From positions 46,257-110,256 of the IMG/VR virus record IMGVR_UViG_3300043788_000060: 64,000 nt of DNA; one strand, written 5' to 3'. Each line of letters starts with the position of its first letter. Position 1 is the stretch's first letter. Origin of the DNA: a virus. Made by a program: the position numbers and the translations under genes. This document shows positions 6,939-31,138 of this stretch, one piece after another. The notes beneath the pieces are model-generated. The model was not told the DNA's origin, did not search any database, and was given only the letters and a program-made list of their open reading frames with translations.

Positions 6939-7166
6939 ATGGAAGAATCTCTTCAAATCCACCACAGCGAGCAGATTCACTGGGCTTCCTACGATCCGGA
7001 CACCCAGCAATTGAACCTGACGCTCAACGACCGGAGAAAGCACGGGTATTCGCCGGTCCCCCAAAAGGTGGTTAACGGATTTGTCCGCGCTAAATCCCAC
7101 GGGGATTTTTTCCACAAGAACATCAGAAACAACCCGAATTACCGATACCACGGAAAGGTAGAATGA
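6939..7166 (+). CDS. KTSC-domain protein
   Basis: S..I..ASYD...L.L....Y..VP...F..A.S.G.FF..NIR pattern. Confidence 0.75.
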   Translation: MEESLQIHHSEQIHWASYDPDTQQLNLTLNDRRKHGYSPVPQKVVNGFVRAKSHGDFFHKNIRNNPNYRYHGKVE

Positions 7167-12864: not shown

Positions 12865-13581
12865 ATGGCTTCCTCCACGATCCAACTTCAGCGGACGATC
12901 AACCGCTCCTCGCAATACGCCCGCTTGGAGCCACTGACGTTTGTCTCAAATACCGCTAATGACCCGGCGTTTTCAAACGCCGATTGGGTGATGCAGACTA
13001 TTTTGGCTCCCCCGTTTGCGTGGAGATGGAACAGGACCTCGGAAGGAACTCCGTCGGCCCCTGCGTTTGTCACTGAAATCGGCGTAACGGACTATCAAGT
13101 TAATCTCCCAACTTTTGGTTGGCTCGAAAAGGCTACTTTGTACGATCCAACTTCTGGATACGCGGCTCTGGAATTGCAAGTAGAACTGATCAAGGCTATC
13201 GAAACCAACCCTATCCAACCCCAGCGTATCGCAACACAACTTGACGACGGACAAGGAAACATAACGTTCCGATTATTCGGGTCCCCGGATCAGGTCTATA
13301 ATGTTTGTCTGGAATTTCAAAACGCGGCCCAATTATTCACCGATCCAACAAATACGTGGGCTCCTATTCCGGACTACTTATCATACATCTACAACGAAGG
13401 CATGGATTATAAGACGTTTGAATATTTGTCGGACCCCCGTATGCAGACATCTGGACAGTTGTTCTTTCAATCCCTCGCTGCGGCTTCTGAAGGGCTGACG
13501 GAATCTCAGAAAAATCTTTGGCTAAGTGACAAAATGAATACGCTCCGTCAGACTGCATCCGTTCAATCGGGGAGGGCCTAA
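12865..13581 (+). CDS. Head-tail adaptor / tail tubular A-like protein, paralog 1
   Basis: IL.PPFAWRWNR...DY...GWLE...FRL..P...IPDY pattern shared with 26096..27187. Confidence 0.55.
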   Translation: MASSTIQLQRTINRSSQYARLEPLTFVSNTANDPAFSNADWVMQTILAPPFAWRWNRTSEGTPSAPAFVTEIGVTDYQVNLPTFGWLEKATLYDPTSGYAALELQVELIKAIETNPIQPQRIATQLDDGQGNITFRLFGSPDQVYNVCLEFQNAAQLFTDPTNTWAPIPDYLSYIYNEGMDYKTFEYLSDPRMQTSGQLFFQSLAAASEGLTESQKNLWLSDKMNTLRQTASVQSGRA

Positions 13582-13880
13582 TGGGAACAGCAACTACCGG
13601 GTTTCATCGCTTTAGTAACGTCACTGCTCGGGCTCCATACTCAACTACCCAAGAGGTGGTTCCCGGGGCTACTATTTATGTAACTTTGACGACGACCGGA
13701 GCCGGGGCTGTTATTTATTCGGACCCGGGACTGTCTGTAGTTATACCGGGGTCGTTGATTACTGCCGACCCCTCGGGGTGGTACGAATATTATATTCCCC
13801 TGAATTACAACGTGACAGAAACCATTACCTCGGTTTCCGGATTGAATTTTACGATCACGAACATCGTGTCTAACACATAG
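13581..13880 (+). CDS. 99-aa protein paralogous to the N-terminal domain of the giant fibre (no signal peptide)
   Basis: TTGFHR..VVP.A.I.VT.T.TG..A.IYSDP.LS..I....TAD..G.Y.YY.PLNY.VTETIT aligns directly with the fibre N-terminus. Confidence 0.8.
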   Translation: MGTATTGFHRFSNVTARAPYSTTQEVVPGATIYVTLTTTGAGAVIYSDPGLSVVIPGSLITADPSGWYEYYIPLNYNVTETITSVSGLNFTITNIVSNT

Positions 13881-13887: not shown

Positions 13888-16800
13888 ATGAAGAAATTTC
13901 TTCTCATCGTCGCTTTGTTCCTCGCAATCTGTCCATTATCCGGACTGAATGCTCAAGCCACGACCGGCTATCATCGGGTAAATCAGGTGCTGTCCCGAGC
14001 CTCTACCGGGATCAACGCTCAGGTGGTCCCCAACGCCAGAATCACGGTTACCCAAACGGCTACCGGAACTGCGGCAACTATCTATTCCGACCCCCTGTTG
14101 TCCAACCTTATAACTCCGTCTGTAGTCACTGCCGATAACGCAGGGAACTATTCATATTATGTCCCTCTGAACTATTGTGTAACAGAAACAATCACTGCCC
14201 CCGGTCAGGGGACTCAGATAATCCCTAACATCTGTTCAAACAGCGCCAGCAGCAGTACCTTTCCTTCCCCTCCGTCATTTTCTGTACAATTCGCAAACAG
14301 CGGGTCATCGGCTTTTGATAGTGATTCGACTATTAACGTCACTCCCTCTACTCATACCCTTACTTCTCCAACGGTACAACCGGGTCAGGATGTTACCCAG
14401 AGTTCTCCTGTTATAGACATTCGCAACACTGCCTTTGCGGGCGGTGCGGTGATCGACGGCCACACCGATATTAGCCCCGCAGTGTGCGCCGCCCGTGAAA
14501 GTTGGAGCGCCTCACATCCGGGTCAAAGTCAGACAATTTTATTGGCCTGCGGCGGCGGTGGTTCATCCGCTTCTTGCTGGTGGGCTAACCCTTTGGCGAG
14601 TTGTTCTGGAAGCATAGGCAGTGATTTTAAGTACGTCCTGCAAGGCACTCTCAATGTAGGTACCACGTTGTCCGTTGGTGCGGGTGGGGCTTCTATAGGC
14701 GCGTCAGAGTTCGATGGGGAATCGGGAGAGTTTGGAACTCAATTCCAAGGCACTTTGGCGACAGCAGTAGTCAACGGTCCTCTATGTTTTGGTACGCTCG
14801 GCACCGCAATCACAACGATCAACACCCCGGTCACGGTGACGCCGACATTTTCCGGAACGACTATCGGCGGTGCATGTTCGATTGCAAATCTTCCGGTAAA
14901 TTCCGCGCTGACTATGCGCGGCATGGAAACGTCAGCGGCTACGGGTACGCGGTCTTCAACTTCACTCAGCGGAAGCGGTGGGTACGCGGTACTGACCTTA
15001 TCTTCTGCCGTGCGTATTTCGGCGGGGTCGAACATTCAGGTAACTGGCTGCTCAGACACAGCGTTCAATACCGGTACTCTGGGAACGCTGTCACAAAGCG
15101 TAGTCGCCACTCCGGATTATCCCAATCAGCAACTCGGCTATTACATCTCGACATCTGGTACCGGGTCATCAACAGGATGCACGGTGAAGGGGGCCAGTGA
15201 CGACCGTTTTGAGACAGAGCTAGTGCAGTGCTCAAACGGCACGGCTAATCCCGGATACTCCTGCGGCGCGGGACAGATCACTTTCGTAAACGCCCATACA
15301 TACGCATCGACTGACCAGTGGGGCGAAGTGGCGATGGAAAGCCCGTTCAACGACGGGGCCGGTGGAACTGGGTTGGTAATGAAGCGGATTCTAGTCCAAG
15401 GTTCCGCAGGAGCAGAATTCTTCTCCGATGAGTCCATCCATGAGACGTTCGAGGATGATGGGTTTATTGCCTTTGGGACGCCCACTTCGATTCCTTTCGA
15501 GGCAGATTACCCGCAGAACCTCACAGTCCATTCATCGGCTTTTAATTCGGTCAACAATGGGTATAGCACTTGCCAATCCGGTAACTGTGGGAACGTGAGT
15601 TACCCGTTCGGATTTCGCTGTACCATGATCCCGCCCAGTATCAGTTCTTATCAGGCGGGAACGTGTAACAACTCGAAAATTGATACTTACTCTCAGGTTC
15701 GCGGTGGAATCAAAGTCGATACCAACGGATTCTCTCTGAACTTCGGTATTGAGGCAGCAGCCCCGGAACTTGACCGTGTTTTAATCGAGGAGCCTGTATG
15801 GGGTGGAATTACTTTCGATACCCGAGATGGAGTCACAGGCCCGGTTTACATCAAGGATAGCTACTTACAGGATTTCGTTTCTGGGAGCACCGATCAGGCT
15901 TTTATTGCTGCGGAAAATCCGGGGGGCACTGGATATATTTTTGAGAACAATACCTACTCAGAAAATCCTTTTCTCGTCAATAAATATTGGTATAGTCCAG
16001 CAATCAGTGTGCGCGGAAACATCTCTGATCAGCTTTATACTCCGTGGCCTTATCAAGGGATAGGGGCTGTAGGGCTATTTGAGGACAATGGATTTCTCAA
16101 GGGTGAAGTTGAAGCTCCCGCATTTACTGGTTTCGAGAGTTTGCCCTTCGGTTCGCTCGCTGTAAATCAGTCGCCTGCATCTTGGACTTCGGCTTGCAGC
16201 ACGAACTGTACGGTAACAACGGTTCAAGACCCCACAGGCGGTCAGAACGGCGCTAATATCGCCTCAAACTCAACCACTCATCAAACGATCCTGATTAGCA
16301 TACAATCCGTATCCACCTACCCCGGCGATCAGTTTATCTTTATGGATTGGTTGCGTCCCGGTACCGGACAACTCATACCTAATGACTGGCGAGGTAACTA
16401 TCCATTCCAACTCCAAACTTTGGGCACGGATACCTTTCAGAACAACGGATGCGAAAGCGGCATTGGGTCAAATACAGCCTGCGCTACTAATTACGGACTT
16501 CCTATGTTGAACGACGACTGGGCACCTTACGTGGCTACCGCCACTATCGGGACAGGCGAGTCAGCAGCGCACTTCATGGAGTTTAATCTCGAAAGCGGCC
16601 AATGCACGAATGGTTCGATCCTCAACTGCGGAACACAGCATTTCTGCCCGCAGTGGGCTTTTGTACCGGGGCCTAATAACCCCTCCTACACAGGTGTTTC
16701 TACGTTCGACGTGCAAATCGCCCGCATGTACAACTATCACGGTTGTGCGCCGGGCGGGTTACTTGCCGGACAGGTGGCGACTAATCAAACTGTTGTAGCC

Positions 16801-19800
16801 GCCCAGATTATCGATTCAGGAACCCCATCCAGCACAGCCCCGCTATGTCCAAACGGTCCTAACGGTCAATTCACTACTTCTGGTTGCGTAGCTGGTGCGG
16901 TAACCTCCGTCTCCAACTCCGATGGAACTTTAACTATCTTCCCAACAACGAGTGCGGTAGTAGCCTCTCTAAACACAAGCCACGCGAATTCATGGACCGG
17001 GTTACAGACGTTTGGAACAGATATCTCTATAGGCGGTGTAACAGCTACAGGGGCCACAGGAACTGGTAACGTCGTATTCTCGGCTGCTCCGACCTTTACC
17101 GGAACAATCACGGGGGTAAATCTTACGTTGACCGGTATTGAGTCGGGCAGCGGAAGTTCTTGCTTGCAGATCAGCACTGCCGGAGTCATCAGCAATACAG
17201 GAGCCCCCTGCGGATCGGGAAGCGGCGCGGTTAATTCTATCACCGGAGACGGCGGTATAATCACCAACAGCCTATCTACCGGTGCCGTTACTCTGACTTT
17301 AGGAGCTACAGAAGCAGGCCAGTTTATAGTGGCTTCTGGGTCGGGAACCGCCGTATGGGGAAAGCAAGTCACGCTTGGTCACCAAAATGATAGCGGCGCT
17401 TTAGCTAACGGCTCTCTTACGATTGCCGGTAGCACAACTGCGTCTGGAAATTTAACTCTTAACGGAACAGGGTCTTCTCCCGGACAGATGTCGTTATTCC
17501 TTAATTCTGCCGGAACTATTATGGATTTGGGAAGCACCAACGCCACGGTATCGGCAGCCGGGGCCTATGTTGGAACGAATGTAACTGATTCAGCACTAAA
17601 CGTGGCTGGATTGGTAACTAACTCGTCTGCTGGACTTCTAGGAACAGAAGCTAATTGTACTATCGCACAAGGATGTACGAACGCAACTAGTGCGACGGCG
17701 GGTACAGTTCCTAACGCTACTAGCGGGACTGCGTCTAGCTGGACCCCAACTCCTGCGTTGGGAACAGACAACAGTGTGTCCGGAACTCTACAACTTTCGA
17801 ATAACACCGCAAACGCCCACTCAATTCTCGGAAGCGCGGCTACGACAAGCAACACGGTCAAGTTATTTGCTACCACTCCTACAAATCTGGATTTGATCTA
17901 TTGTGCCAGTTCTGGAGGAGTATGCACGCTAACCGACGCCGGTTATGCCTACAACTCAATTCCATTAGCTGATATTGCTTCACAATCAGCCAATATCATA
18001 GTTGGAACCACAACCAGCGGTAGTCCCGTAGCTCTGTCCGCTCCTTCTTGTTCAGGGGCAACTAACGCTCTAATTTGGACAACTGGAACGGGTTTTGGTT
18101 GCAACACAATCACCACAAGCAGTGTTGCTTTCTCTGGGCTCACCTCCTCGACCAATACCACAGCAGCTATGGTCGTTGGAACCGGAGCAAGTCTGTCTAC
18201 CTCCGGATCGGGAACTATCGTAGCCACAAGCAGTCCATTTTCCGGACTAACTACCTCTACAAATACTACGGCTACCATGACTGTCGGAACTGGGGCAACT
18301 ATTACCTATTCCGGGTCGGCGGTGATAAACTCCACCGCAGTAGAATCGGCTGGAGCTATTACAACTAACGCAACTTATTATTTCCCGATTATATCTTCAA
18401 GTTCGTCCGGAAACTACGAGTTGAATGCTGTAGCTGGTCTAACAATTAACCCGTCAACCGGGTCTATGGATGTTCCTTCGGGCATCGCAACTGGCGGACT
18501 ATCCAACACAATCTCCGGGGGAACAGCAGGATTCTATGGTCCAATAGAAGGAACCGCTCCCACTGCTATAACGGGCTCTGGCAATTTTGATATCATCTAT
18601 GCGGATTCGACTCTGCACGCCGACATGGAGTGCCCGGAGTCTAATTCAACCGCCGTGACTACATGCCTGCCCGTTGCCTTGATGCCAGCTACGAGCACGG
18701 CTGGGGATGTGGTGTATAGCACTAACTCAAACGGGTATAACCTATCGGATGCTGGATACCCATACAACGCAATCCCCAACGCCGATCTTGCTCATTCTGC
18801 AATAACCATCGCAGGCACCTCAGTATCTTTGGGTGGATCAACTACTTCGCTCCCGAGTCCCGGCGTAATCGGCGGAACAACCCCGGCGGCGGCTACCTTC
18901 ACGGCTCTGACCGCCAACACGAGTCTCGTAATCAACGGCGGAACGGCTCAAACTGGAACACAAGGCACTGATACAAAGCTACTGACAGCCGGAACTATAA
19001 GCGGTACCAGTATACTTCTTTGCACGGATGCAAACGGCGGAGCAACCACCACAAGCTGCCCGAGCGGTGGTTCTGGGGTTGTGTCAGCCGCTGCACAATA
19101 CGATATCGCATACTACACTCAGTCGGGGACTACAGCACAAGTCGGCGGAGCGGCAATTAGTGGTTTCCAATTCGATTCAACTTCCGGAGCACCAGCCGCG
19201 GCTACCGCAGCGCAACTTGGAACTCTGGCTGCTATTGCAACTGGAGATTTGGTCTACAGCGGAGGAACGTCATCGGCGCTCCAAGGAAGCGCAGACTTCA
19301 CGATTTCATCGCATACTCTGACTGGAGGATCAAACGCTATCTTCGATATGAGTGCTGGCGTGAACGTGAAACTGCCGGTCACCGCTTCTTACACTAGCGC
19401 AGCCAATGGCGAACAGGGTTACGACTCAACAAATAAGAATTGGCATATATGGGGAAACGCTGTTGATAATTTCAATGTGATCGTACCGGTATCAACATCG
19501 ATCACGAACGGCCACTGTTCTCAATGGTCTCTATCAGGCGGTGTGCTGACGCTCATCGATGCTGGTTCAACGTGTGGCTCGGACTCCGGTGGAGGAATAT
19601 CGGGGTGGTCTGGAACACCGTTAACCTTTATTTCAAGCACTACACAATATGCTCCCCCAGTGGGCGGAGGCTTGACCGCCACTTCCGAATCGACGGCAGA
19701 CGTAGCTGCGCCTGCTGCCGAAACTATCTCCAGCCTTGCTGTAAGTCTTAGTGCGGCCTTGGGCGCTGGTGCAACACTCCAAGTCACCTTCCGAGATAAC

Positions 19801-20775
19801 GGCGCGTCAACGGCGCTTACTTGCACTACAGCATCGGGTGGAACGTCCTGTACCGACACGACGCACAGCGTGAACATCGCTAAGGGCGATTTGATCGATC
19901 TATTGTTGGTCTCTTCCGGCACGGTAACCGCTGGTGTTCCTCAAATTATCGCAAACTATGCAGTCGGCACGAGTGGTGTCGGTGTGACTAGTATTGCCAC
20001 TACAGGCCCCATCACTGGCGGGACAATCACTTCGACGGGTACCATCGCCTGCGCGACGTGCGTTACCAGCGCCGCGTCACTGACGGCCAACGGCATCGTA
20101 ATTGGCGCAGGGAGTCAAGGGGCACAAACCTTGGCTTTAGTGGCGAACGCGGTCCTCAGCACAAACAGTATCGGCGTGCCATCGGAAAGCACAACGTTGC
20201 CTATCGCGCTGACGATTCCCGACGCTGCATCGATTCAGGCGCAGACGGTTCTTCCGCTCACGCAAGTTGGCATCTACAATACAGCGGCTCTGCCGGTAAC
20301 GACTACCAATCCGGCATTGACTTCTTACACTGTCTCAAAGAATCGTCGCGCCTGCGTGATCGATAACGATACGCAGTCAGCGACCGCACTGACAGCGGCG
20401 CAGTTCTCAGGGAAATGCGTCATTCCGTTTGCGGCGACCATCGTCGAAGTAGACGTTTCGGGCGGAACGCAGACCTTGAACGGAACCGCGACGGCTCCGA
20501 CTTACACAGGTACAAGTTCGATCCAGATCGGCAAATCTGGAGCGCAAAACGTAACCGGAATTCTTTCGGGAGTTCTTGCTACGGCTTCGGGCAGGGCCTG
20601 TGCGGTTGCGGGAACTTCGGGAACCTGCATTTTCGATAACGGTATGACCAGCAGCACGACAGTACAACTGTCTGATACCTCGGTCGCAGCCGGAGATCAA
20701 CTTTACATTTCTGCCGCAACGGCGGACGCAACACAGACGTGGTACGACGTAACCATTGTCTACACGGTAAATTAA
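13888..20775 (+). CDS. Giant (2295 aa) tail fibre/spike-like protein with an N-terminal signal peptide
   Basis: MKKFLLIVALFLAICPLSGLNA-Q; fibre-type repeats (AVTSVSNSDGTLTI, GAVNSITG, GVTSIATTGPITGGTITSTGTI); probable beta-helix region; many Cys pairs. Confidence 0.75.
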   Translation: MKKFLLIVALFLAICPLSGLNAQATTGYHRVNQVLSRASTGINAQVVPNARITVTQTATGTAATIYSDPLLSNLITPSVVTADNAGNYSYYVPLNYCVTETITAPGQGTQIIPNICSNSASSSTFPSPPSFSVQFANSGSSAFDSDSTINVTPSTHTLTSPTVQPGQDVTQSSPVIDIRNTAFAGGAVIDGHTDISPAVCAARESWSASHPGQSQTILLACGGGGSSASCWWANPLASCSGSIGSDFKYVLQGTLNVGTTLSVGAGGASIGASEFDGESGEFGTQFQGTLATAVVNGPLCFGTLGTAITTINTPVTVTPTFSGTTIGGACSIANLPVNSALTMRGMETSAATGTRSSTSLSGSGGYAVLTLSSAVRISAGSNIQVTGCSDTAFNTGTLGTLSQSVVATPDYPNQQLGYYISTSGTGSSTGCTVKGASDDRFETELVQCSNGTANPGYSCGAGQITFVNAHTYASTDQWGEVAMESPFNDGAGGTGLVMKRILVQGSAGAEFFSDESIHETFEDDGFIAFGTPTSIPFEADYPQNLTVHSSAFNSVNNGYSTCQSGNCGNVSYPFGFRCTMIPPSISSYQAGTCNNSKIDTYSQVRGGIKVDTNGFSLNFGIEAAAPELDRVLIEEPVWGGITFDTRDGVTGPVYIKDSYLQDFVSGSTDQAFIAAENPGGTGYIFENNTYSENPFLVNKYWYSPAISVRGNISDQLYTPWPYQGIGAVGLFEDNGFLKGEVEAPAFTGFESLPFGSLAVNQSPASWTSACSTNCTVTTVQDPTGGQNGANIASNSTTHQTILISIQSVSTYPGDQFIFMDWLRPGTGQLIPNDWRGNYPFQLQTLGTDTFQNNGCESGIGSNTACATNYGLPMLNDDWAPYVATATIGTGESAAHFMEFNLESGQCTNGSILNCGTQHFCPQWAFVPGPNNPSYTGVSTFDVQIARMYNYHGCAPGGLLAGQVATNQTVVAAQIIDSGTPSSTAPLCPNGPNGQFTTSGCVAGAVTSVSNSDGTLTIFPTTSAVVASLNTSHANSWTGLQTFGTDISIGGVTATGATGTGNVVFSAAPTFTGTITGVNLTLTGIESGSGSSCLQISTAGVISNTGAPCGSGSGAVNSITGDGGIITNSLSTGAVTLTLGATEAGQFIVASGSGTAVWGKQVTLGHQNDSGALANGSLTIAGSTTASGNLTLNGTGSSPGQMSLFLNSAGTIMDLGSTNATVSAAGAYVGTNVTDSALNVAGLVTNSSAGLLGTEANCTIAQGCTNATSATAGTVPNATSGTASSWTPTPALGTDNSVSGTLQLSNNTANAHSILGSAATTSNTVKLFATTPTNLDLIYCASSGGVCTLTDAGYAYNSIPLADIASQSANIIVGTTTSGSPVALSAPSCSGATNALIWTTGTGFGCNTITTSSVAFSGLTSSTNTTAAMVVGTGASLSTSGSGTIVATSSPFSGLTTSTNTTATMTVGTGATITYSGSAVINSTAVESAGAITTNATYYFPIISSSSSGNYELNAVAGLTINPSTGSMDVPSGIATGGLSNTISGGTAGFYGPIEGTAPTAITGSGNFDIIYADSTLHADMECPESNSTAVTTCLPVALMPATSTAGDVVYSTNSNGYNLSDAGYPYNAIPNADLAHSAITIAGTSVSLGGSTTSLPSPGVIGGTTPAAATFTALTANTSLVINGGTAQTGTQGTDTKLLTAGTISGTSILLCTDANGGATTTSCPSGGSGVVSAAAQYDIAYYTQSGTTAQVGGAAISGFQFDSTSGAPAAATAAQLGTLAAIATGDLVYSGGTSSALQGSADFTISSHTLTGGSNAIFDMSAGVNVKLPVTASYTSAANGEQGYDSTNKNWHIWGNAVDNFNVIVPVSTSITNGHCSQWSLSGGVLTLIDAGSTCGSDSGGGISGWSGTPLTFISSTTQYAPPVGGGLTATSESTADVAAPAAETISSLAVSLSAALGAGATLQVTFRDNGASTALTCTTASGGTSCTDTTHSVNIAKGDLIDLLLVSSGTVTAGVPQIIANYAVGTSGVGVTSIATTGPITGGTITSTGTIACATCVTSAASLTANGIVIGAGSQGAQTLALVANAVLSTNSIGVPSESTTLPIALTIPDAASIQAQTVLPLTQVGIYNTAALPVTTTNPALTSYTVSKNRRACVIDNDTQSATALTAAQFSGKCVIPFAATIVEVDVSGGTQTLNGTATAPTYTGTSSIQIGKSGAQNVTGILSGVLATASGRACAVAGTSGTCIFDNGMTSSTTVQLSDTSVAAGDQLYISAATADATQTWYDVTIVYTVN

Positions 20776-20788
20776 CCAAGGAGAATCT

Positions 20789-21580
20789 ATGAAGAAGTTT
20801 ATTTTTGTGATCGCGATGCTGGTAATTGCCGCCGTGATTGGGGGTGCCCAGAACCAAGCTCCTGTTACAGGTCCAATTGCTCCTAACGGGTTTGCCATAC
20901 CAAACGTCAATTTGATAGACGATTTTCTCGGCAATACTCCAGCGACTTCGACGACAATCGGGCAATTGGGGTGGGATTCTACCGTTGTTTCTGGTGGAAC
21001 CAACCCAGTTGCTGCTACGGCTTCTGTAGCCAATCATCCGGGGCTGATTACCCTCACTACTGCTGCAACAACTGGTGACGGTGTATATGTGTCGTTGGGT
21101 CACGCGGTGGGAGTTCTATTTCCCGGTAACACAACCAACTGGCAAGCGGAATGGATTCAGGAGTACAACCAGATATCCACAGGTTCAACTAGAATCGGTT
21201 TTGGTACTGTCGATTCGTCTTCTGCTATTCCGACAAACGGCATCTATATCCGATATCTTCAAGGCACGGACTCTTTCTTGAATGTCTGCTCGGATACTTC
21301 TTCAACAGAGACCTGCGGGGCGACGACCATTCTTCCAACCGCAGCGGACTACGTTGACATCATTATGAGTTCGTCTGCTACCGGGACGATCAGCGTCACG
21401 GTAAACGACATCACGACTCCGGCGACTTCTACGATAAGGGTATGCTCAAGCGGCTGCAACGTTACAGCGACTCCTCCAACAGGAGTCCTATCACCTATGT
21501 TCTCAATCGTTTCAACCAGCAACACGGCGGATGTCCTGACTGTGGATTATTGGAACTATCAACAAATCGCCGCCAGATAA
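20789..21580 (+). CDS. Exported beta-sandwich/lectin-like protein
   Basis: SD AAGGAG; MKKFIFVIAMLVIAAVIGGA-Q; two Cys pairs. Confidence 0.7.
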   Translation: MKKFIFVIAMLVIAAVIGGAQNQAPVTGPIAPNGFAIPNVNLIDDFLGNTPATSTTIGQLGWDSTVVSGGTNPVAATASVANHPGLITLTTAATTGDGVYVSLGHAVGVLFPGNTTNWQAEWIQEYNQISTGSTRIGFGTVDSSSAIPTNGIYIRYLQGTDSFLNVCSDTSSTETCGATTILPTAADYVDIIMSSSATGTISVTVNDITTPATSTIRVCSSGCNVTATPPTGVLSPMFSIVSTSNTADVLTVDYWNYQQIAAR

Positions 21581-21584
21581 TATA

Positions 21585-23117
21585 ATGAAACGACTTATCC
21601 TATTTTTGTTCTTTCTGTTCTCGGTACCTACGTGGGCGGTTACCCCAGTTGTTCTTCAGTATTTCGGCGGTCCGAATGAGTCAAACGAGTTTGCGCTTAC
21701 GACCAGTTTGACAAAGAATGTTCCGTTGGCTAGAGCCGCGACTGCTGGGGATACGCTCGTCTGGTGCATGTACTACAACACCGGAAGCGGCTGGGCTGTC
21801 AAGACAGATGCAGGCGCTGAGACTTTTACCGAAGGCGTTCATGGAACCGATTCGGGTGTCGGAACATTGGACTGCTACTACTTCATCAACTTGGCAGGCG
21901 GTGAAACTAGTATCCAGATCACGCACACGTCAGGGAGTCCTACCTATGTGGGCGGAGTGGGATACGAAGTGAACAACATCACCGCTCATCACGTCGCCGG
22001 AACCTGTACGTCGGGGTCAGGGGCACTAGGACAGGCAGCTTCTACGACAGTTACTTCCGGCACTACAGGGACAGTCGCATCGGGAGATTGGCTTTCTGTC
22101 TACACCTTTCAATTCTCGACGCCGCAATTGACGGTTGCCTACGCTCCTGTGACCCACGCGAACATCACTTGGCAGATGATTCATTCGGAACTGATGGTCG
22201 CGCAAGCCATGATGGTAGGTCAATATAGCACTACCACAGCCTTCCAGCCTTCAATGACTCAAGCCAACGTGCAGACCTCGAATATGTGTACGGATGCTTT
22301 CACGACGGGCACCAGTGGAGCGGCGGGATTCCCGACAGGCGAAGTTGTGGCTGGAGTGCAGGCCGAGACGTTCTTGAACGGTGGCACGAATCCGATGGAT
22401 ATAGAAATAACGCCTATCGGAAACACGCTCGTGGTAATGGGACCAACGGGGTTTGGTGGATATTTCACGTCGGTCACGAGCAGTCCAAGTGCAACGTGGA
22501 AGTGGAATGACGGGTCGGGCAGCGACCCGGCTAGGTGTTTCGATTCAGGCGATGTTACCGAGACGCCTTACTTCTACGCTACGGGTCTGACTCCGGGCAC
22601 GACCTACACCATCACGGTAACTTCTAATACGGCGGCAGTCGATACAGCCTTCGCTGAGTTCGATATTGCTAAAGGGTCAACCCCGAACATCGGTAGCGCC
22701 GGTTCATGTAATACCGGTGTTTTTTCTGCGACCAGTGGAAATCTGAATATCAGCCTTACCACAGGAGGCGGTGCGGCGACCAATGCGGCCTTTGTACCAA
22801 CGAGCGCCAATGGGATCGTTATTTCCAGCGACAGCGTATCGTTCGATACAAACTCTGGCACTACAACCTCCGGCGCATTTGTCAATATGGGCTACAACAG
22901 CGGAGCGACCCAGATTGGAAACAGCCCGTGGTACGAGAATGACGGAGATTTAAGCTATCCGCATAGTTCAACGTCGAGTGTGGCCTTCATCTACACAATC
23001 ACCAGTTCTCCCCCCAACACATCAAGTGATGTAAGTGATTGGTCCGCTTCTACCATCGATGTTCCCGCAGCGTCATCACCGAGCACTTCCATACACCATA
23101 AGGTTACATCGGAATGA
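21585..23117 (+). CDS. Exported Thr/Ser/Gly-rich protein, probably two beta domains
   Basis: MKRLILFLFFLFSVPTWA-V. Confidence 0.7.
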   Translation: MKRLILFLFFLFSVPTWAVTPVVLQYFGGPNESNEFALTTSLTKNVPLARAATAGDTLVWCMYYNTGSGWAVKTDAGAETFTEGVHGTDSGVGTLDCYYFINLAGGETSIQITHTSGSPTYVGGVGYEVNNITAHHVAGTCTSGSGALGQAASTTVTSGTTGTVASGDWLSVYTFQFSTPQLTVAYAPVTHANITWQMIHSELMVAQAMMVGQYSTTTAFQPSMTQANVQTSNMCTDAFTTGTSGAAGFPTGEVVAGVQAETFLNGGTNPMDIEITPIGNTLVVMGPTGFGGYFTSVTSSPSATWKWNDGSGSDPARCFDSGDVTETPYFYATGLTPGTTYTITVTSNTAAVDTAFAEFDIAKGSTPNIGSAGSCNTGVFSATSGNLNISLTTGGGAATNAAFVPTSANGIVISSDSVSFDTNSGTTTSGAFVNMGYNSGATQIGNSPWYENDGDLSYPHSSTSSVAFIYTITSSPPNTSSDVSDWSASTIDVPAASSPSTSIHHKVTSE

Positions 23118-25537
23118 AGAAACTCTTTCTTCTTGCATTTGCTATCGTGCTGACGGCACCGTTATGCGCCCAATCGTGGTCGAACGTACTATCTTCTTCG
23201 CGGGCCATAAACTGGACCAACGCCGGATTACCTGCCACGTTGCCTGATGGGGAAACGACTCCCAATCCGTGGACCCCTCCGACTCGTCCCGCATGTACCA
23301 CGGGGCAGGCCGGAACAACCGTTCCCATTCCCTCGGGTGCTTCGGTTACGACGATCAACTCGGCCATTGCTTCCTGTGCAGCAGCCAACCCAAACGGATC
23401 ATACCTGCTGCTTGGTGGGTCTACAGCCAGTCCTGCGACGTTCACTGTCGCGTCCACGCAGTTAAGACTCGTTGATACCTCGGGCGGCATTTCGCACAAC
23501 GCTGTCACCCTGCGAGGTGGCGGAGCAATGGCAACGAAGATTGTAGTGACAGGTACAGGTGTAGTTGTCTTTGGAAATGCTTGGAGTTCTGGATCGGCTC
23601 CGTGGACCGCCGGGTTTAGTCAAGGCACAACATCAATCACCGTTGGAACTCCTACATCAGGAACTATTCCTGTGGCAGGCAATTTGGTTCTATTACAGAT
23701 GTGCAACACCGGGTTTTCTGGAGCGGGCTGCTCTACCGGATCAGTTGCAGATAACGGCAATGTGTTTCTGTGTGGTGGATCAACTTTCTGCGCAAATCAG
23801 GCAGGCAACGATACTCTTCAGGGTCAGATGGTAAGAGTCACCAGCGTAACCGGCTCAGGCCCATACACAGTTAATTTCACACCCGGTCTTTACATGCAAA
23901 ATTGGACTTCTACCGGAGGGGGTTCGACGATGAGTTGGACCGGGGCTGGGTCGATTAACTCTCCTTATGGTATAGGTCTGGAAGATTTGACGGTTGATGA
24001 GACGGGAATATGGAACACAGAAAACTTTGGCATTCAATTTGATTATGTCTACGCATCGTGGATGAAAGGCGTCCGCGTAGTGGGGTCAGGAGAAGCGGAT
24101 TCGGTCGAGTTCGAGGATTGCAAAAATAGTCTGATATTCAACTCTATGTTTGATGACTATTCCTACAATCGTGGAGATTTATCTCTTTCTATTCAGGAAA
24201 CCAACGATTCCGATAATCTAATCCTAAATACTCAGATGCTCCACGGACTGTCTTGGGAAGGTCATGGACCCAACGAGGGGGATATTCTGGCGTACAACTT
24301 CATTGGCCAGACTCATACCCTTTATTATGAAGCAAATCCGTTTCAGCACACCCCGGGCACGGCGTTTACTCTTTATGAAGGAAATGAAACCGGCCATATC
24401 ACAGACGATGACACTTGGGGAACCGCAAACCTGAATACGTTTTTCCGGAACTATATGTCGGGATGGGACCCGCCGTATCTTCTCTCAAGCCAGTGCGCTT
24501 CTTTATCATGTGTGGCAATGAAAGTGGATGGGGGGCACCGATTCGCTAATGTCATTGGTAATGCTATTGGAAGCCCGTTCCTGACGAACTATCAGGCTAC
24601 ATTGTCAACCCCAACTAACGGGATCACCAATAACGCTGTCTATCGATGGTCAGCAGACATGAACGACCCCCTCGTTTTGCTCACAGTCATGAGATGGGGA
24701 AATGTTTCTTCAGTAACGCAATCGTCAGACACTCCTGCTAATTCAGGTATCCGGTTTGTATCGTCAGAAGTTCCCTCTTCGATCAACGTCAATGGGCAGT
24801 GTTCTGCTAGCGCCAGTCCATATTCCTGTTGCACAGGATCGGGAACAGGAACATGCTCTGCTTCGACGTGGGCGAATTCAGTACCTTCCAATGACAATCT
24901 GCCGTGTTCGTTTTTCCTTGCCGGATATACTGGAACCAGTTGTACTCCTACCCACACAGGTGGTACTGGGCTAAGCTGGTGGAAAGTATGCAAAACATGG
25001 GCGACTTTTCCCACTTCCTGCTCCGCCACCCAAACCCAAGCCTTTCCGATTGCCGGTCCAGACATCACGAGCGGTCCATACGTTGGGGGAACGGCTTATG
25101 ATGTTCCGGCCTACGTTGCGTTTACCACTCTGCCGGTTGATACGACCTACGAGAATTCCTACTCGATCACCGGCTCCAGCTGGTCGGGGACTTGCGCAAA
25201 CCAACCATCGGGAACCTATGCTTGTGAAACCCTGACTGTCACCGGATTACCTTCCGGCAGCGCCCACATTATGGGCGATATCCAGATATCAGGGACTTCC
25301 GGATGCAACACGTCTACGAACGGTGTATTTACCATGACAGCGTCAAGTCTTAGCGGCACTACAGGAACCATAGTGTATCCTTTGGCTTCTAACCCCGGTT
25401 CATGTTCTGGCGGAACCATGCTATTTCCGGTGGTACGTCAGTTCGATGAAGCAGTCTATCAAAACGATCCTGCGGGAAACCCAATCGGATCAGTCCTATC
25501 CCCCTCAAACATATTTGGAAAATCAGTAATTCAATAA
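23114..25537 (+). CDS. Exported pectate-lyase-like beta-helix protein (possible depolymerase/adhesin)
   Basis: MKKLFLLAFAIVLTAPLCA-Q; TINSAIASC..VTLRGGG..T.I; IGLEDLTVD; Asn-ladder repeats; Cys-rich. Confidence 0.7.
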   Translation: MKKLFLLAFAIVLTAPLCAQSWSNVLSSSRAINWTNAGLPATLPDGETTPNPWTPPTRPACTTGQAGTTVPIPSGASVTTINSAIASCAAANPNGSYLLLGGSTASPATFTVASTQLRLVDTSGGISHNAVTLRGGGAMATKIVVTGTGVVVFGNAWSSGSAPWTAGFSQGTTSITVGTPTSGTIPVAGNLVLLQMCNTGFSGAGCSTGSVADNGNVFLCGGSTFCANQAGNDTLQGQMVRVTSVTGSGPYTVNFTPGLYMQNWTSTGGGSTMSWTGAGSINSPYGIGLEDLTVDETGIWNTENFGIQFDYVYASWMKGVRVVGSGEADSVEFEDCKNSLIFNSMFDDYSYNRGDLSLSIQETNDSDNLILNTQMLHGLSWEGHGPNEGDILAYNFIGQTHTLYYEANPFQHTPGTAFTLYEGNETGHITDDDTWGTANLNTFFRNYMSGWDPPYLLSSQCASLSCVAMKVDGGHRFANVIGNAIGSPFLTNYQATLSTPTNGITNNAVYRWSADMNDPLVLLTVMRWGNVSSVTQSSDTPANSGIRFVSSEVPSSINVNGQCSASASPYSCCTGSGTGTCSASTWANSVPSNDNLPCSFFLAGYTGTSCTPTHTGGTGLSWWKVCKTWATFPTSCSATQTQAFPIAGPDITSGPYVGGTAYDVPAYVAFTTLPVDTTYENSYSITGSSWSGTCANQPSGTYACETLTVTGLPSGSAHIMGDIQISGTSGCNTSTNGVFTMTASSLSGTTGTIVYPLASNPGSCSGGTMLFPVVRQFDEAVYQNDPAGNPIGSVLSPSNIFGKSVIQ

Positions 25538-25545
25538 GGAAAACA

Positions 25546-26061
25546 ATGAAAAAGTTTGTTCTTTCGCTTATCTTTTCGGCATCGGCGTTATTAGCTGGAG
25601 TCGGTTGCGCACACGCAGGTCAGCTTCCTCCAACGCCCGGATACAACACCGTGTGGACATGGACGGCCCCTAGCCCGTGTAGCGGGTGTACCTATGTTGT
25701 GTCCACGCTCGTTCTGTCCAGTGGGACGACTTGCCCCGCGTCAACAGGATCGAATTACATCCCTCAACAAACTGTGACCACAGGAGTAACTGGGACGACT
25801 TGGACCCAGACAAACACAACTGGGTTGACGTTGTGTGCTGTTGCCCAGACAATTCAGGGGGGAAATACTTCCACTGCTTCAGCACAAAGCGCAGCGGTAA
25901 TTAACCCGACCCTGCCATCAGCCCCCGGAGTACCAAGCGGAAATTCGGCGGTATCTGCGTTGGCTCCCCCTGTCTCCCCAAACTCCCTGCCAGTGCCTAG
26001 CTCCCAGATGGCAATGAATATTCCTATGCAGATTGTAGGACATTCGGTTCCGAGACAATAA
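25546..26061 (+). CDS. Exported FN3-like small protein (possible lipoprotein)
   Basis: MKKFVLSLIFSASALLAGVGCAHA; WTWTAP..Y.V..C.V....S..S..PSAP. Confidence 0.65.
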   Translation: MKKFVLSLIFSASALLAGVGCAHAGQLPPTPGYNTVWTWTAPSPCSGCTYVVSTLVLSSGTTCPASTGSNYIPQQTVTTGVTGTTWTQTNTTGLTLCAVAQTIQGGNTSTASAQSAAVINPTLPSAPGVPSGNSAVSALAPPVSPNSLPVPSSQMAMNIPMQIVGHSVPRQ

Positions 26062-26095
26062 TTAGCAATTAGTCCATTATTCGGACGGAGAAACG

Positions 26096-27187
26096 ATGCC
26101 TGTATTACCCGGGAACCAAGCTAATTCGCCGACAGTTCAGCAGATAGCTCAACAACTAAAAGCGGACCCCTCTTTCTATAACATATTAGGAGGGGCTGCT
26201 GGTTGGGCTACCGAACCAATCCTGACTATCGCCAACGAAGTTCTGTCGCGAATTCTCGCCGAGAACATGCCTTGGATTTGGAATCGGGCAATCGTTCCTC
26301 CGTTCTTAACTGTCAGCCTTCAGCAGGATTATTGCACTCAGCTTACGGATATTGGGTGGTTGGAAGATGGCTGGCGTATAGACATCAACAACTCGACATC
26401 GAATAACAACGGGGCCCCGAAACCTATCTTTAGCCTCGAAACGGTCAGGTACACCCCGCAGGCGTCCGCCCAATCCGTACCATTCAACATTAGCTTCGTC
26501 CCTAACTCACAGGCGTTTCTAGGATCGTGGCAGGCTAATACTGCTTATGGTTGTGGGTATGGAGTTCCTATGACTCCTCGAACCCCCATCCAGCAGTTCA
26601 TGGATGTAAATGGCAACATCCTATACATCGACTCGACCCAACTAGGATTGACCATTTCTTCTCCGGGGTACACTGGAACTACCATCCTTCCCCCCGGAAC
26701 AGTGTTTCCTTACGGCACATCTGGGGCTACTCAACCCGCCGCTCCTCCTAACGCTACTCCCGGAACTTTAGTTCAGGATGGTTCGGTCATTTGGGCAGTC
26801 GCTGATCCAAATGGTTATGCGATACGGCTATTTCCTCTTCCGGCGTTGAACGGTCTCTGTTGGTGGATCGTAACTCAGTATCAGGTAGCTCCCCCGGTTA
26901 TCGCAAGATTGCAAGATTCGATTGCTCCTATTCCTAACTACATGGCGTACCTCTTCCGTCAAGGGTGCCGGGCGATGCTCTATCAGTTTCAAGGAAACCA
27001 GCAAGGTACTCAAATGTATCAGGAGTGGGAAGAGCAACTTTTTAAGGCTTTGAGAGCGGGGGACCGCCAGCAATCAGACGAGCGTCTATACCCTGATCAT
27101 TCAATTATGGGAAGCTACAACCCGTGGATGGACCCTGCTGGCATTGGCGCAGCTTGGCCTTATGGCCCCGGCCCGTATGCCTATTGA
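26096..27187 (+). CDS. Head-tail adaptor / tail tubular A-like protein, paralog 2, with an inserted Trp-rich module
   Basis: MPWIWNR..QQDY..GWLE..IRLFP.P..PIP; insert WQANTAY..GTSG..QDGSVIW. Confidence 0.55.
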   Translation: MPVLPGNQANSPTVQQIAQQLKADPSFYNILGGAAGWATEPILTIANEVLSRILAENMPWIWNRAIVPPFLTVSLQQDYCTQLTDIGWLEDGWRIDINNSTSNNNGAPKPIFSLETVRYTPQASAQSVPFNISFVPNSQAFLGSWQANTAYGCGYGVPMTPRTPIQQFMDVNGNILYIDSTQLGLTISSPGYTGTTILPPGTVFPYGTSGATQPAAPPNATPGTLVQDGSVIWAVADPNGYAIRLFPLPALNGLCWWIVTQYQVAPPVIARLQDSIAPIPNYMAYLFRQGCRAMLYQFQGNQQGTQMYQEWEEQLFKALRAGDRQQSDERLYPDHSIMGSYNPWMDPAGIGAAWPYGPGPYAY

Positions 27188-27973: not shown

Positions 27974-30900
27974 ATGCCCAATAACCTTCAAAAAGTCGGA
28001 GCACAGCCCAGCAGGCCCGCACGGTTTGGCGTTCTCTGGCACAACAATTTCTATCTCGGCATGGTTACTCAGCGGAATCCGCTGCACAGCTACCTGCAAC
28101 ACATCGAAGAGGAGTTTTACGGAAACCAACCGGCGCTGATTGGCGGGTCTAATACCGAGGTCTCTACCAAGCTGACGTTAATCCGCAGACCGGGACACTC
28201 TGTCTACAACTCAAGTACCTTTCCGACAATAAACCGGTTCTACGAAAACCGGTTGTCGATTTTCAATGCCACCCAAACGACGACCACCGAGTCAATTCAG
28301 ATCGTCGCAGATTGCGCACCTGTCACACAAGGACCGTTTACCTTCAATATTTCCAGTGTACAGGTTCTGAAAATTCAAACGAATTTCAGCATCATCCATC
28401 CTACATATACCTACTACGCTCTGGTAACTTTCTCGACGACTCTACCAAGCGTTGTCTATGGACAAACTTTTACCTTTTCCGGTCTTACTGGATATACCGC
28501 CTTAAACGGACATGCGTTAATCGGCGTATCGTCCGTAATTAGATATCATTTGTCTGCTGGACCCAATCAGGCGCTTTTCTCGTTTGGGTCTGCTGCTTAT
28601 CCAAATACCCCGGATACCGGAATAGCGACGGTTCCTGCTGTAACCGGAGTAGGAACCGTAAGAGATGTTACCGGCCCTTCGACTAACAAAGTTCTGTTTT
28701 CTAAAACAGCGGGGGCCGGAACCGCGAGTTTTCAATCGGTCGGAAACACTCTATATTTTTCGGACGGCCCCGATCAGGAAAAACTGATTACCCCTAATCT
28801 AATCTGGTCGGCTAATCAGACTTTCAATACCGGAAACCAAGTTTTAGACACCAACGGAAATCTTCAGATCGTCCAAGGAACCGGAACAGCCACGATAACG
28901 GAAATCGCAGTTATCAGTTCTACTCTAGGAGTAGTCGGCGGTCCTACCCAATATTTCTTACAGATAACTTTCTCTTCCGAAGTGTTCTGGACTCAAGGAA
29001 CACTCGTTACTTTCTCCGGGGTTACAACTTATACGTCTATAAACGGTCAGACCCAGACCGTTGTGGTGAATCCTACCTATCTTCCTCCGGGAGTTAACAC
29101 AGCTTATTTCACGACAGCAGCAATCACTACCTACGGTCCGGCGGTGGATACAGGCACAGCCACTTCTACGAATTCTACCGGCAGTGGAACCAGCGGAGGC
29201 ACAACTCCTTCTTGGAGTCCAACAATAGGCGGATTTACTACCGACGGAGATTTGACGTGGCAAAACTTCGGAATCCCTCTTTATAACTGGGCAGTACCCC
29301 CTCCGACTCTCCCCCCCACTTTAAGCATACCGTCTGGAAACAGATACTGGCAGCCAAATTTTTCGGTTCCTCAGTGGTACTCCGTTTTAGACCAGAACAA
29401 TCATATTCAGTTTGTATCCTCCCCGGGAATCACAGGAACCCAACAACCTGTTTGGAGTAGCTTATACGATACCGGGTCTTCGTCCAACGGAGTTGTAGCG
29501 GGGTCTACTACAGACGGGACTGTAACTTGGCTAAACGCCGGTCCATTAGGCACGTGGCAGGCCGACACGACGTATTATGTTTTCCAGTGTATCTTGGATT
29601 CAAACGGGAATATTCAAATCGCAGAAAGCGGAGGAACCAGCGGAGGCTCCGCGCCTGTCTGGAACACAACTATTGGAGTAACTACCACAGACAACACTAT
29701 TACTTGGGTTTGTGCAGGTCCCGGTCACGTTATCATAACCGGAAATGTATATTACGGGTATAGTTGGGTCTCTACGGACGGAAGTGTAACCACCTCCTCG
29801 CCAGTAGTTTCTCTAAATATCAACAGTGCGGTTTTAGGCCCCGCAGGAAACCCGATAGCGACAGTGTCCGGAAGTTTCCCGGCTGATCAACAGGTAACGC
29901 AGGCATGGGTATGGAGATCGGTTCAAGGTGGGTCAGCAGCAGAGTTATTCTTCGACTCTGCCCAGTACAACCCCACTCCCGGTGCCGGGTCTAACTGGTC
30001 GTTCAACGATGTAATCCCAGATGTTTATCTGAACGAACTAATTCAGGCACCTCTGGATGACCAAAACGATCCTCCTCCTGTAGGACTAACGGCTCTTGCC
30101 TATCACCTCAACCGCGTGTGGGGCTCCGTCGGAAATATTGTTTTCAGTTCTCAGACCTCCGGTATCGTCGGAAACCCCTACACAGCTTGGGACCCGGGAG
30201 TGTTCTTCACTTTCCCGGACACCGTGGTACGATTGTGGCCTACCTCAAACGGTCTGCTCGTATTTACGGTCGCCGATATTTTTGTCATTCAAGGATTGGG
30301 AGATGCTTCTAGTTCCTTCTTTTCGACACCGTTCTTACAAGGAACGGGGCTTGCGAATTACGATGCTTTTACAGTAAAAGGCGCGATTCCGTATTTTTAT
30401 ACCACAGACAATCAGGTACTTACAATCGACCCAAGCACTGGACTATCAGAAGTAGGGGCCCCGGTCGGAGATCAATTTGGTCCGAATAATGGAACAAACA
30501 CCTTTCTTCCTTCTACGGCTCGGTTGACTTGGAATTTCTCCGGGTCGCAGGAAAAGGCGTTGTACGTTTCGGATTTCTCTCAGAACTGGTGGAGGATGTT
30601 ACCCACCCCGTCTCCAGAAACCGGAACAACGTGGTGCCCAATGGCAACTATTGTCGGCGGGTTCTCCGCTGTTCAGTCGGTAGAAACTTCCCCGGGAATT
30701 CATAACTTGTTGCTGGGTCCACAGACGACCGGTCCGATTCTTATGAGAGACCCGTCTGTCTATTCCGACAACGGTTCGTCGTACAGCGCCTATACCATAA
30801 TCGGCAGCATAGTTCTGGCCCAGCCGGGACAATTGGCGTACATCAAATTGTTAACAACAGACTGTCAGGCAGTAGGAACTCCGATAACCCTTGAAGTTCA

Positions 30901-31138
30901 ATTGGATGAGATAGCTCCGTTGTCTTCCGGGTATTTCGAACCCTTAACTTTGTATGTTCCTGATCCGACCCAGTTAACCGCCCCTAACAGCTTATATGCA
31001 CAACGATTCTATATGTCGCAGACGCAACAACCGGCGGTATGCAGGCACTTCCAAGTTCTAGTTTCTTTTGGAACCGATGTTGTTAAGAACGAATTACTTA
31101 GCCTGTCTATTTTCGGTGCCTACGATCAAGAGGACTAA
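27974..31138 (+). CDS. Tail nozzle / stabilisation (tail tubular B-like) protein with inserted repeats
   Basis: LIRRPG N-terminal motif, propeller-like C-half (LAYHLNRVW..VFSS), Trp-rich repeats; lies before the ejection genes. Confidence 0.6.
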   Translation: MPNNLQKVGAQPSRPARFGVLWHNNFYLGMVTQRNPLHSYLQHIEEEFYGNQPALIGGSNTEVSTKLTLIRRPGHSVYNSSTFPTINRFYENRLSIFNATQTTTTESIQIVADCAPVTQGPFTFNISSVQVLKIQTNFSIIHPTYTYYALVTFSTTLPSVVYGQTFTFSGLTGYTALNGHALIGVSSVIRYHLSAGPNQALFSFGSAAYPNTPDTGIATVPAVTGVGTVRDVTGPSTNKVLFSKTAGAGTASFQSVGNTLYFSDGPDQEKLITPNLIWSANQTFNTGNQVLDTNGNLQIVQGTGTATITEIAVISSTLGVVGGPTQYFLQITFSSEVFWTQGTLVTFSGVTTYTSINGQTQTVVVNPTYLPPGVNTAYFTTAAITTYGPAVDTGTATSTNSTGSGTSGGTTPSWSPTIGGFTTDGDLTWQNFGIPLYNWAVPPPTLPPTLSIPSGNRYWQPNFSVPQWYSVLDQNNHIQFVSSPGITGTQQPVWSSLYDTGSSSNGVVAGSTTDGTVTWLNAGPLGTWQADTTYYVFQCILDSNGNIQIAESGGTSGGSAPVWNTTIGVTTTDNTITWVCAGPGHVIITGNVYYGYSWVSTDGSVTTSSPVVSLNINSAVLGPAGNPIATVSGSFPADQQVTQAWVWRSVQGGSAAELFFDSAQYNPTPGAGSNWSFNDVIPDVYLNELIQAPLDDQNDPPPVGLTALAYHLNRVWGSVGNIVFSSQTSGIVGNPYTAWDPGVFFTFPDTVVRLWPTSNGLLVFTVADIFVIQGLGDASSSFFSTPFLQGTGLANYDAFTVKGAIPYFYTTDNQVLTIDPSTGLSEVGAPVGDQFGPNNGTNTFLPSTARLTWNFSGSQEKALYVSDFSQNWWRMLPTPSPETGTTWCPMATIVGGFSAVQSVETSPGIHNLLLGPQTTGPILMRDPSVYSDNGSSYSAYTIIGSIVLAQPGQLAYIKLLTTDCQAVGTPITLEVQLDEIAPLSSGYFEPLTLYVPDPTQLTAPNSLYAQRFYMSQTQQPAVCRHFQVLVSFGTDVVKNELLSLSIFGAYDQED

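Follow-up and report, generated by a model that had tools for sequence, protein, structure and literature searches.

In the textbook view, tailed phages assemble wholly in the reducing cytoplasm. Sec-dependent virion proteins are known from filamentous phage Ff (pIII and pVIII), which is assembled at the membrane without lysis and whose pIII is disulfide-bonded and receptor-binding. The exported proteins described for tailed phages are lysis proteins (fOg44 Lys44, signal-arrest-release (SAR) endolysins, and T4 RI; PMC6116005), and work on the mosaic adhesive trimer (MAT) fibres of Bdellovibrio bacteriovorus shows that phage-type fibres can mature via Sec (PMC10769870). Our literature search, outside of which lay most subscription journals, returned no account of Sec-exported or signal-bearing appendages of tailed phages, only lysis proteins, contractile-injection cargo signals, and unrelated uses. 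Here we describe a cassette of five consecutive genes in the tail module of an uncultured phage, at positions 13888-26061 of a 64,000-nucleotide window (the whole stretch of DNA analysed, bases 46257-110256 of IMG/VR record IMGVR_UViG_3300043788_000060). Judged by comparison of their sequences, all five products are cleavable-type Sec pre-proteins whose signals are conserved within their families. Their export and oxidative folding, proposed in an earlier sequence-only reading of this locus, is strongly supported by comparative evidence and in our estimate very probable, given that the signals are conserved, that a Cys pair goes with the signal, that Cys counts tend to be even, and that one product belongs to a secreted, host-derived enzyme family. 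We further propose, with about even confidence, that the genes serve a podovirus-type phage of Acidobacteriota as a variable cassette for host recognition, and that their exported products dock at lysis on particles built in the cytoplasm.

The record is a single contig of 110,256 bp, rated 100% complete by CheckV, and the phage is probably a podovirus-type soil phage with a host among the Acidobacteriota; three soil DNA metagenomes contain 26-31% of its sampled words (no RNA run was listed). In the collection of annotated phages, only Tunturiibacter phage Tunturi_3 (PP885686.1) is related to it; this cultured podovirus, which has a 77 nm head and a 21 nm tail, infects an acidobacterium (PMC11924767). 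Approximately 20 uncultured relatives in IMG/VR are closer than Tunturi_3, including one of 104,680 bp (97% complete) whose terminase and portal are 58% and 71% identical, respectively, to those of the window phage.

Signal peptides and cysteines of the cassette proteins

The cassette opens with a giant protein of 2295 amino acids (aa; 13888-20775), which contains 49 Cys (48 in the mature part) and is composed of a signal (residues 1-22), an N-terminal domain (N-domain; approximately residues 23-118), and a long, mosaic, Cys-rich distal part. It is followed by a 263-aa protein with 4 Cys (20789-21580), a 510-aa protein with six conserved Cys and no assigned fold (21585-23117), an 807-aa protein with 22 Cys (23114-25537), and a 171-aa protein with 5 Cys and a Pro/Ser-rich tail (25546-26061), each with a signal and all encoded on the plus strand. 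The five open reading frames (ORFs) exist as the sequence-only reading had described them. Closely spaced Cys pairs, which it had ascribed to all five, are found in the 263-aa protein at 167/176 and 219/223 and do not extend to the 510-aa protein, whose six Cys sit 36-94 residues apart; tail-fibre-type repeats, ascribed to the giant, were detected neither by Tandem Repeats Finder nor by BLAST self-comparison. Gaps within the cassette measure 13, 4, -4, and 8 nucleotides (nt), the giant begins 7 nt past the preceding gene, and 34 nt separate the last cassette gene from the next tail gene. Because the genes are tightly packed and no terminator-like site was found between the cassette and the tail genes, we consider the cassette part of the late tail operon.

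Signals were called using a hydrophobicity-scan heuristic together with conservation, a Sec signal being defined by a positive n-region, an uncharged h-region of approximately 10-15 residues, and small residues at -3 and -1. As originally claimed, this n-h-c pattern was seen in five out of five proteins (an MKK or MKR start, an uncharged hydrophobic core, and a small-x-small site), with predicted cleavage, in cassette order, at LNA/Q, GGA/Q, TWA/V, LCA/Q, and AHA/G. When 721 ORFs of at least 50 aa were scanned genome-wide, the cassette was the only run of signal-like N-termini, and four scattered small ORFs outside it were also positive; since the cassette genes were the only large genes to score, a run of five is not attributable to chance. 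Translation from downstream starts, which the sequence-only reading had named as a way in which the signals could prove spurious, finds no basis here, as no in-frame alternative start with a ribosome-binding site was found downstream of any of the five signals. As a separate observation, a 109-aa ORF (7163-7492, plus strand), which precedes the tail module within the structural arm, has a clear signal-like N-terminus, MNMKLALLSVFLALPLLLPA/Q, and no family match.

Signals are likewise conserved in homologs: they were present, by the heuristic, in 99 of 120 listed homologs of the 807-aa protein (the remainder being mostly mis-started), in four of four homologs of both the 510-aa and the 171-aa protein, and in nearly all of 45 relatives of the 263-aa protein, with conservation starting at +1. 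Searches of Pfam, PHROGs, and NCBIfam gave zero matches for the five cassette proteins and the flanking tail proteins, even at E values up to 10. The Cys count of the mature part is even in four of the five. No phage-encoded DsbA, thioredoxin, or signal peptidase was found, and the phage would therefore rely on its host for these functions.

Folds and families of the cassette proteins

The gene preceding the giant encodes s99 (13581-13880, plus strand), a signal-less, Cys-free protein of 99 aa that is a stand-alone copy of the fibre N-domain. Residues 4-98 of s99 are 54% identical to residues 24-118 of the giant, and the alignment opens one residue past the predicted cleavage site; the signal is thus a separate unit of 22 residues, placed ahead of a domain that would otherwise begin at residue 2. 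A phmmer search with s99 against 1.84 billion representatives returned 114 matches. Approximately 95 of these, counted as protein clusters at 50% identity, have the form 'MKK + hydrophobic core + ...GQ/ATTG(Y or F)HR', with the N-domain starting at residue 16-24 and an unrelated distal part (130-1843 aa, 5-39 Cys), and approximately 8 lack a signal, with the N-domain starting at residue 1-5, a length of 99-341 aa, and 0-2 Cys.

Presence of a Cys pair in the N-domain (Cys97/Cys116 in the giant) follows presence of the signal. The pair was found in 57 of 67 parsable signal-bearing representatives and in all 15 signal-bearing locus copies; both Cys together were found in none of the 5 signal-less representatives and none of the 13 signal-less locus copies. 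Signal-bearing forms read Y-C-V-T-E ... N-I-C, and in signal-less forms the first Cys position is occupied by N, M, S, D, or P and the second by V, G, or S. Mature-part Cys counts were even in 57 of 67 signal-bearing N-domain proteins. The N-domain is 50-70% identical between proteins whose distal parts are unrelated, mosaic segments of the giant recur in giant signal-bearing proteins on other phage contigs, and the N-domain family was found in 41 viral contigs belonging to two phage lineages.

The AlphaFold model of the N-domain (pLDDT 87) is a beta-sandwich, and its top Foldseek matches (E values of 2e-3 to 0.17) are all podovirus tail complexes, namely Pan3 (9vyg, TM 0.60-0.64), Pam1 (7eeq_A), and the head-binding domain of the P22 tailspike; matches to 1lkt, 2xc1, and 8tvr had a probability of 0.99, TM 0.55-0.57, and E values of 0.12-0.17. 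All-against-representatives structural alignment ranked 7eeq_A first (Z 9.3, 87/99 residues aligned), with Z scores of 7.2-7.3 for P22 gp9N (8eb7/8tvr), 7.2 for Pan3, and 6.9 for Sf6 gp14N (7sg7). An Atlas feature score of 0.88 to a Head_binding cluster provides a lead only. From these models the N-domain is read as working like a podovirus fibre anchor; its placement in the P22 family goes beyond this evidence.

The 807-aa protein was modelled (pTM 0.85) as a right-handed beta-helix with a strand ladder spanning residues 96-512, and is a candidate polysaccharide depolymerase. Its nearest structures in Foldseek are the K1 capsule lyase 7w1c (E 1e-11) and the LKA1, phi297, KP34, and AP22 tailspikes, and it has a weak profile match to polygalacturonase 1bhe. 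More than 400 full-length homologs share the conserved mature start Q-x-W-S ... S-S-R-A-I-N-W; the mature N-terminus has nothing in common with the N-domain and begins like that of the bacterial homologs. In 34 Acidobacteriota loci, the family member is typically the lone signal-bearing gene inside a long same-strand operon. One annotated locus, which also encodes a Wzy-type polymerase, a Wzx-type flippase, an asparagine-synthase-like amidotransferase, GT1/GT2 glycosyltransferases, a methyltransferase, a sugar epimerase, and a nucleotidyl transferase, is an exopolysaccharide (EPS) cluster.

Viral relatives of the 807-aa protein were recovered by a profile scan of viral contigs, a single-sequence scan of which came back empty. 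In a quick maximum-likelihood tree, 7 phage-borne copies were dispersed among 28 bacterial copies, with six label changes and clustering not above that of shuffled labels (some 'viral' or 'bacterial' labels may represent prophages), and the window's copy grouped with four Acidobacteriaceae copies with a support of 99. Read for repetition and not for direction, the tree suggests that the family has been exchanged repeatedly between phage and bacteria. From sequence and model together, we predict for the 807-aa protein a beta-helix of depolymerase type, its gene copied from that of a secreted enzyme encoded in host slime-synthesis clusters. Separately, three signal-bearing proteins of approximately 1950 aa that contain an 807-aa-type beta-helix (L005, L007, and L022) are encoded on OY970354.1, an 829-kb 'chromosome' of an uncultured bacterium, where the L007 and L022 copies are surrounded by more signal-bearing genes.

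For the 263-aa protein, the relatives' signals precede a conserved mature start, AQNQAPV, and the domain also occurs as the C-terminal module of signal-bearing proteins of 374-428 aa. Its look-alikes in language-model features and Atlas structures, which are a lead only, are viral proteins of approximately 235 aa that lack its first ~22 residues, and the SO2946-like_C, DUF2793, and Mtd_N fibre-tip families; it is a candidate module for a fibre tip or for receptor binding. Four relatives (29-85% identity) were found for the 510-aa protein. Since all four conserve residues 1-61, including the signal, as protein, the upstream start is the likelier one, and the source gene call (449 aa, starting at Met62) is probably too short. 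A distant relative of 625 aa, P0125, carries a C-terminal extension that to the eye resembles a dockerin repeat with a fibronectin-III-type domain after it, as in ordinary secreted bacterial proteins, and that hints that the 510-aa family too is of cellular origin. Homologs of the 171-aa protein (153-164 aa) close the cassettes of loci L049, L068, L071, and L074. Its hydrophobic core ends in G-C, a feature kept in four of five relatives, and the protein may by this sequence be a lipoprotein; compared with a lipobox ([LVI][ASTVI][GAS]C at the end of the h-region), however, positions -3 and -2 hold atypical residues, the Cys is missing from one relative, and an AxA/Q site comes next.

Modelling with AlphaFold, which the sequence-only reading had suggested as a check, gave a beta-sandwich resembling tailspike anchors for the N-domain and a tailspike-type beta-helix for the 807-aa protein. 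The receptor-binding or fibre nature that this reading had assigned to the cassette is supported for three proteins: for the giant by its anchor-like fold and by synteny, for the 807-aa protein by a fold shared with depolymerase tailspikes, and for the 263-aa protein by its fibre-tip look-alikes. That at least the giant and the 807-aa protein are of fibre or depolymerase nature we regard as likely.

The tail slot in related phages

The cassette occupies a slot between two conserved, signal-less flanks. On its 5' side, t238 (238 aa; 12865-13581, plus strand) is a homolog of the Tunturi_3 'tail protein' gp13 (30% identity) and was found in 20 related viral loci at 57-81% identity, always immediately upstream of the slot. 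On its 3' side, u363 (363 aa; 26096-27187, plus strand) is 31% identical to the Tunturi_3 'structural protein' gp12 and was found in 14 related loci at 61-79% identity, always immediately 3' of the slot. Freedom of the flanks from signals, claimed earlier, was borne out for both genes. Their description as adaptor/tail-tube paralogs stands as regards paralogy, which is weak (30% identity over 93 aa, E 4e-5), and is not established as regards an adaptor or tail-tube identity. A conserved virion-module protein of 1054 aa, also signal-less (27974-31138, plus strand), is 41% identical to Tunturi_3 gp19 and 38-57% identical to its counterparts in relatives. Sequence searches of the PDB gave no match for the giant, nor for profiles of t238, u363, and the 1054-aa protein. 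Other phage genes of the window encode a primase-helicase, homing endonucleases, an RNA ligase, and a PD-(D/E)XK nuclease. A large internal virion protein is the probable identity of a 2322-aa product (34870-41838, plus strand), whose sole match is DUF7178 (residues 1158-1350).

In Tunturi_3, the t238 homolog is directly followed by gp14 (95 aa), which shares 42% identity with the N-terminus of the product encoded after it, gp15, annotated by its depositors as 'tail fiber protein'; both are signal-less. That a stub and the fibre behind it share their N-domain there, and both lack a signal, indicates that this layout is older than the signals. The N-domain profile has no sequence relation to gp14, and the gene arrangement alone is in common.

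Among 14 related loci in which both flanks were seen, the slot holds between 0 and 5 signal-bearing genes. Five genes are present in L049 and L074, three in L068 (giant-like, 807-like, and 171-like), a single 976-aa fibre in the 104.7-kb relative (its first 160 residues, including the signal, being 64% identical to the giant), and a signal-less 170/171-aa form only in L075, L078, and L079. Fibres with signal and N-domain also occur between terminase and portal (L060-L066, L071, and L077) and before the terminase (L041, L055, and L057), sometimes coexisting with a tail-slot copy in one genome. In three further phage contigs (L036, L037, and L040), a giant signal protein is followed by a signal-bearing protein of approximately 250-600 aa and then by an 807-like helix. 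Such mobility of the cassette cuts both ways, being typical of receptor-binding modules and also of cargo genes. A second, unrelated phage lineage in IMG/VR (L081-L087) encodes signal-bearing proteins of 1150-1200 aa with a version of the N-domain that is 31-34% identical and has an extra Cys pair (RVCAMPASGQPC), within a conserved gene string of approximately 420, 240, 115, [fibre], 212, and 982 aa.

A 15-bp site, GTCCGAATAATGGAC, occurs in 30 copies genome-wide at up to 2 mismatches, versus 0.16 expected. On this arm it is oriented along transcription almost everywhere, and two minus-strand copies bracket the cassette as direct repeats: one with 1 mismatch at the cassette 5' end (13931-13945), inside codons 15-19 of the giant's signal (read CPLSG), and an exact one at the 3' end (26072-26086), in the 34 nt that separate the cassette from u363. 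Translated in frame, the site's reverse complement gives C-P-L-F-G-(Q), which is the conserved signal-peptide end across the N-domain family. A lipoprotein reading of these 'CPLFG' signals was set aside because of the bulky residue (L, I, or F) before the Cys. Two-copy brackets are also present in L049 (4630 and 12733), L050/L051 (in L050 at 10047 and 13056), and L067 (348 and 11255), and the 5' copy alone in L056 and L068-70. The bracketing sites may be recombination joints for cassette exchange, or a regulatory element or hairpin.

Assembly, alternatives and known systems

Under the docking model, the host's Sec system, signal peptidase, and disulfide-forming enzymes would, late in infection, export, trim, and oxidise the cassette proteins in the periplasm, while capsids and tails would be built in the cytoplasm with the signal-less 99-aa anchor twin at hand there. 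Lysis would then mix the compartments, the giant fibre would dock on the tail through its anchor domain, and the anchor-less partners would either ride on the giant fibre or work as free enzymes. The likely reason for such a route would be that modules borrowed from secreted host proteins need disulfides to fold. We favour docking mainly because a strongly conserved anchor-type domain that has a cytoplasmic twin would be difficult to account for if the phage encoded no conserved partner for it. A fuller version, in which assembly is split between two compartments, the Cys-free 99-aa protein acts as a stand-in, and the cassette is swapped as a unit between the two direct 15-bp copies, one of them within a signal peptide, we hold more tentatively, at somewhat less than even confidence.

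Several points weigh against docking. Nothing computed places the exported proteins in the particle, and the anchor domain is absent from four of the five. Beta-sandwiches are common, and with the exception of Pam1 the Z scores of the N-domain sit among those of generic transthyretin-like sandwiches (Z 7-8); no Pfam model, including Head_binding (PF09008), matches the N-domain at E values up to 10. The off-slot cassettes, together with the slots that hold signal-less forms only, could mean that the signal-less form is the true tail-bound protein and the exported forms are cargo. Signal prediction here is heuristic, and disulfides can form after release from the cell, as in the AlgoCIS particle, which is built in the cytoplasm (PMC13314943).

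Of the alternatives, the one that survives best holds that the proteins are exported and never bound to virions, serving as a free periplasmic or extracellular slime depolymerase and as free binding proteins, by which the receptor layer would be stripped or masked and progeny freed from matrix and debris, or superinfection blocked. The N-domain would then function in oligomerisation or host-envelope binding, and the tail's true appendage would be the signal-less 99/171-aa protein. This would sit well with the 807-aa family being an ordinary secreted protein of bacterial EPS clusters without a phage anchor, with the N-domain being confined to one cassette protein, with cassettes that shift genome position among relatives and are missing from the tail slot in some, and with phage 807-aa copies dispersed among bacterial ones as exchangeable cargo would be. 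The last small gene could likewise be a lipoprotein beside receptor-binding genes, as Llp is in phage T5. We nevertheless consider free factors fairly unlikely. Preservation of the N-domain at 50-70% identity on unrelated proteins, together with its cytoplasmic twin, suggests that the phage encodes a conserved partner for it, and the folds closest to it belong to domains bound to podovirus tails. Tight translational packing ties the genes to the late tail operon, at the position of the annotated tail fibre of the cultured relative, and a 2295-aa protein would be costly as a free factor.

That infected or lysogenised cells display the exported proteins on their surface as adhesins or receptor decoys, with the N-domain as envelope anchor, is improbable. 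The MAT fibres of Bdellovibrio do share a layout of signal, beta-rich N-domain (~130 aa), and mosaic, phage-fibre-like shaft (PMC10769870), and the giant is both mosaic and Cys-rich. These features have to be set against a complete phage record (100% by CheckV) with the genes inside its late structural operon, an N-domain family drawn from 41 viral contigs of two phage lineages, cassette proteins at whose C-termini no outer-membrane sorting signal was seen and which no family model matches, and a cytoplasmic twin that makes little sense for an envelope anchor. Lysogenic-conversion morons of the Bor/Lom type were set aside, the genes lying in a late structural operon and including a tail-anchor-type domain.

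That the N-termini are not used for export at all, the proteins folding and joining tails in the cytoplasm with the segment as an uncleaved tether or remnant and disulfides forming after release, is very improbable: known tailed-phage fibres do all assemble in the cytoplasm, a functional disulfide is possible in a cytoplasm-built contractile particle such as AlgoCIS, and our signal calls are heuristic, but the signals persist at 29-87% identity in five unrelated families with variable sequence, constant n-h-c form, and conservation from +1, a remnant would decay, signal-less N-domain twins never have the Cys pair, and bacterial members of the 807-aa family are plainly secreted.

If docking of exported fibres is real, it would add a new assembly step for a large group of soil phages (approximately 95 clusters for this anchor alone, in at least two lineages), and would mean that secreted, disulfide-dependent host enzymes from slime-synthesis clusters are usable as host-recognition modules of phages. 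Annotation practice would have to change, as genes with signals are usually taken to be non-structural when they occur in virion modules, and recombinant depolymerases of this kind may require oxidising expression hosts. Even if the proteins act as free factors, Acidobacteriota phages would secrete slime-degrading enzymes in infection, which bears on carbon turnover in peat and tundra.

Compared with known systems, the cassette proteins resemble the Ff proteins and the lysis proteins of tailed phages in being signal-bearing phage proteins, and would like them be matured by host Sec and signal peptidase; the published exported proteins of tailed phages, however, are lysis factors and not virion appendages. 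With MAT fibres, the N-domain proteins have in common a signal, a conserved beta-rich N-domain, and a mosaic distal part, a likeness of design and not shown homology, whereas MAT fibres are encoded by cellular genes of a predatory bacterium and were shown on its own surface. The secreted beta-helix family of Wzx/Wzy (exosortase-type) EPS clusters in Terriglobales is 41-54% identical to the 807-aa protein over its full length and has the same signal and mature N-terminus, but its members are single genes among glycosyltransferases, flippase, and polymerase, whereas the phage copy lies in a cassette of signal-bearing, fibre-like genes. Depolymerase tailspikes (the K1 lyase of NTUH-K2044-K1-1, LKA1 gp49, phi297 gp61, KP34p57, and AP22 gp54) share the beta-helix fold of the 807-aa protein (Foldseek E 1e-11 to 4e-8, probability 1.0); the latter differs in being only 10-13% identical to them, in having a signal and no particle-binding N-domain, and in having chromosomal, secreted Acidobacteriota proteins as its nearest sequences. 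Finally, the tailspikes and fibres of podoviruses (P22 gp9, Sf6 gp14, Pam1, and Pan3) likewise combine an N-terminal beta-sandwich of approximately 100 residues with an exchangeable distal part and are encoded in the tail module; those proteins are signal-less and join the tail in the cytoplasm, whereas here the anchor stands behind a Sec signal, carries a Cys pair, and has a separate signal-less twin encoded upstream.

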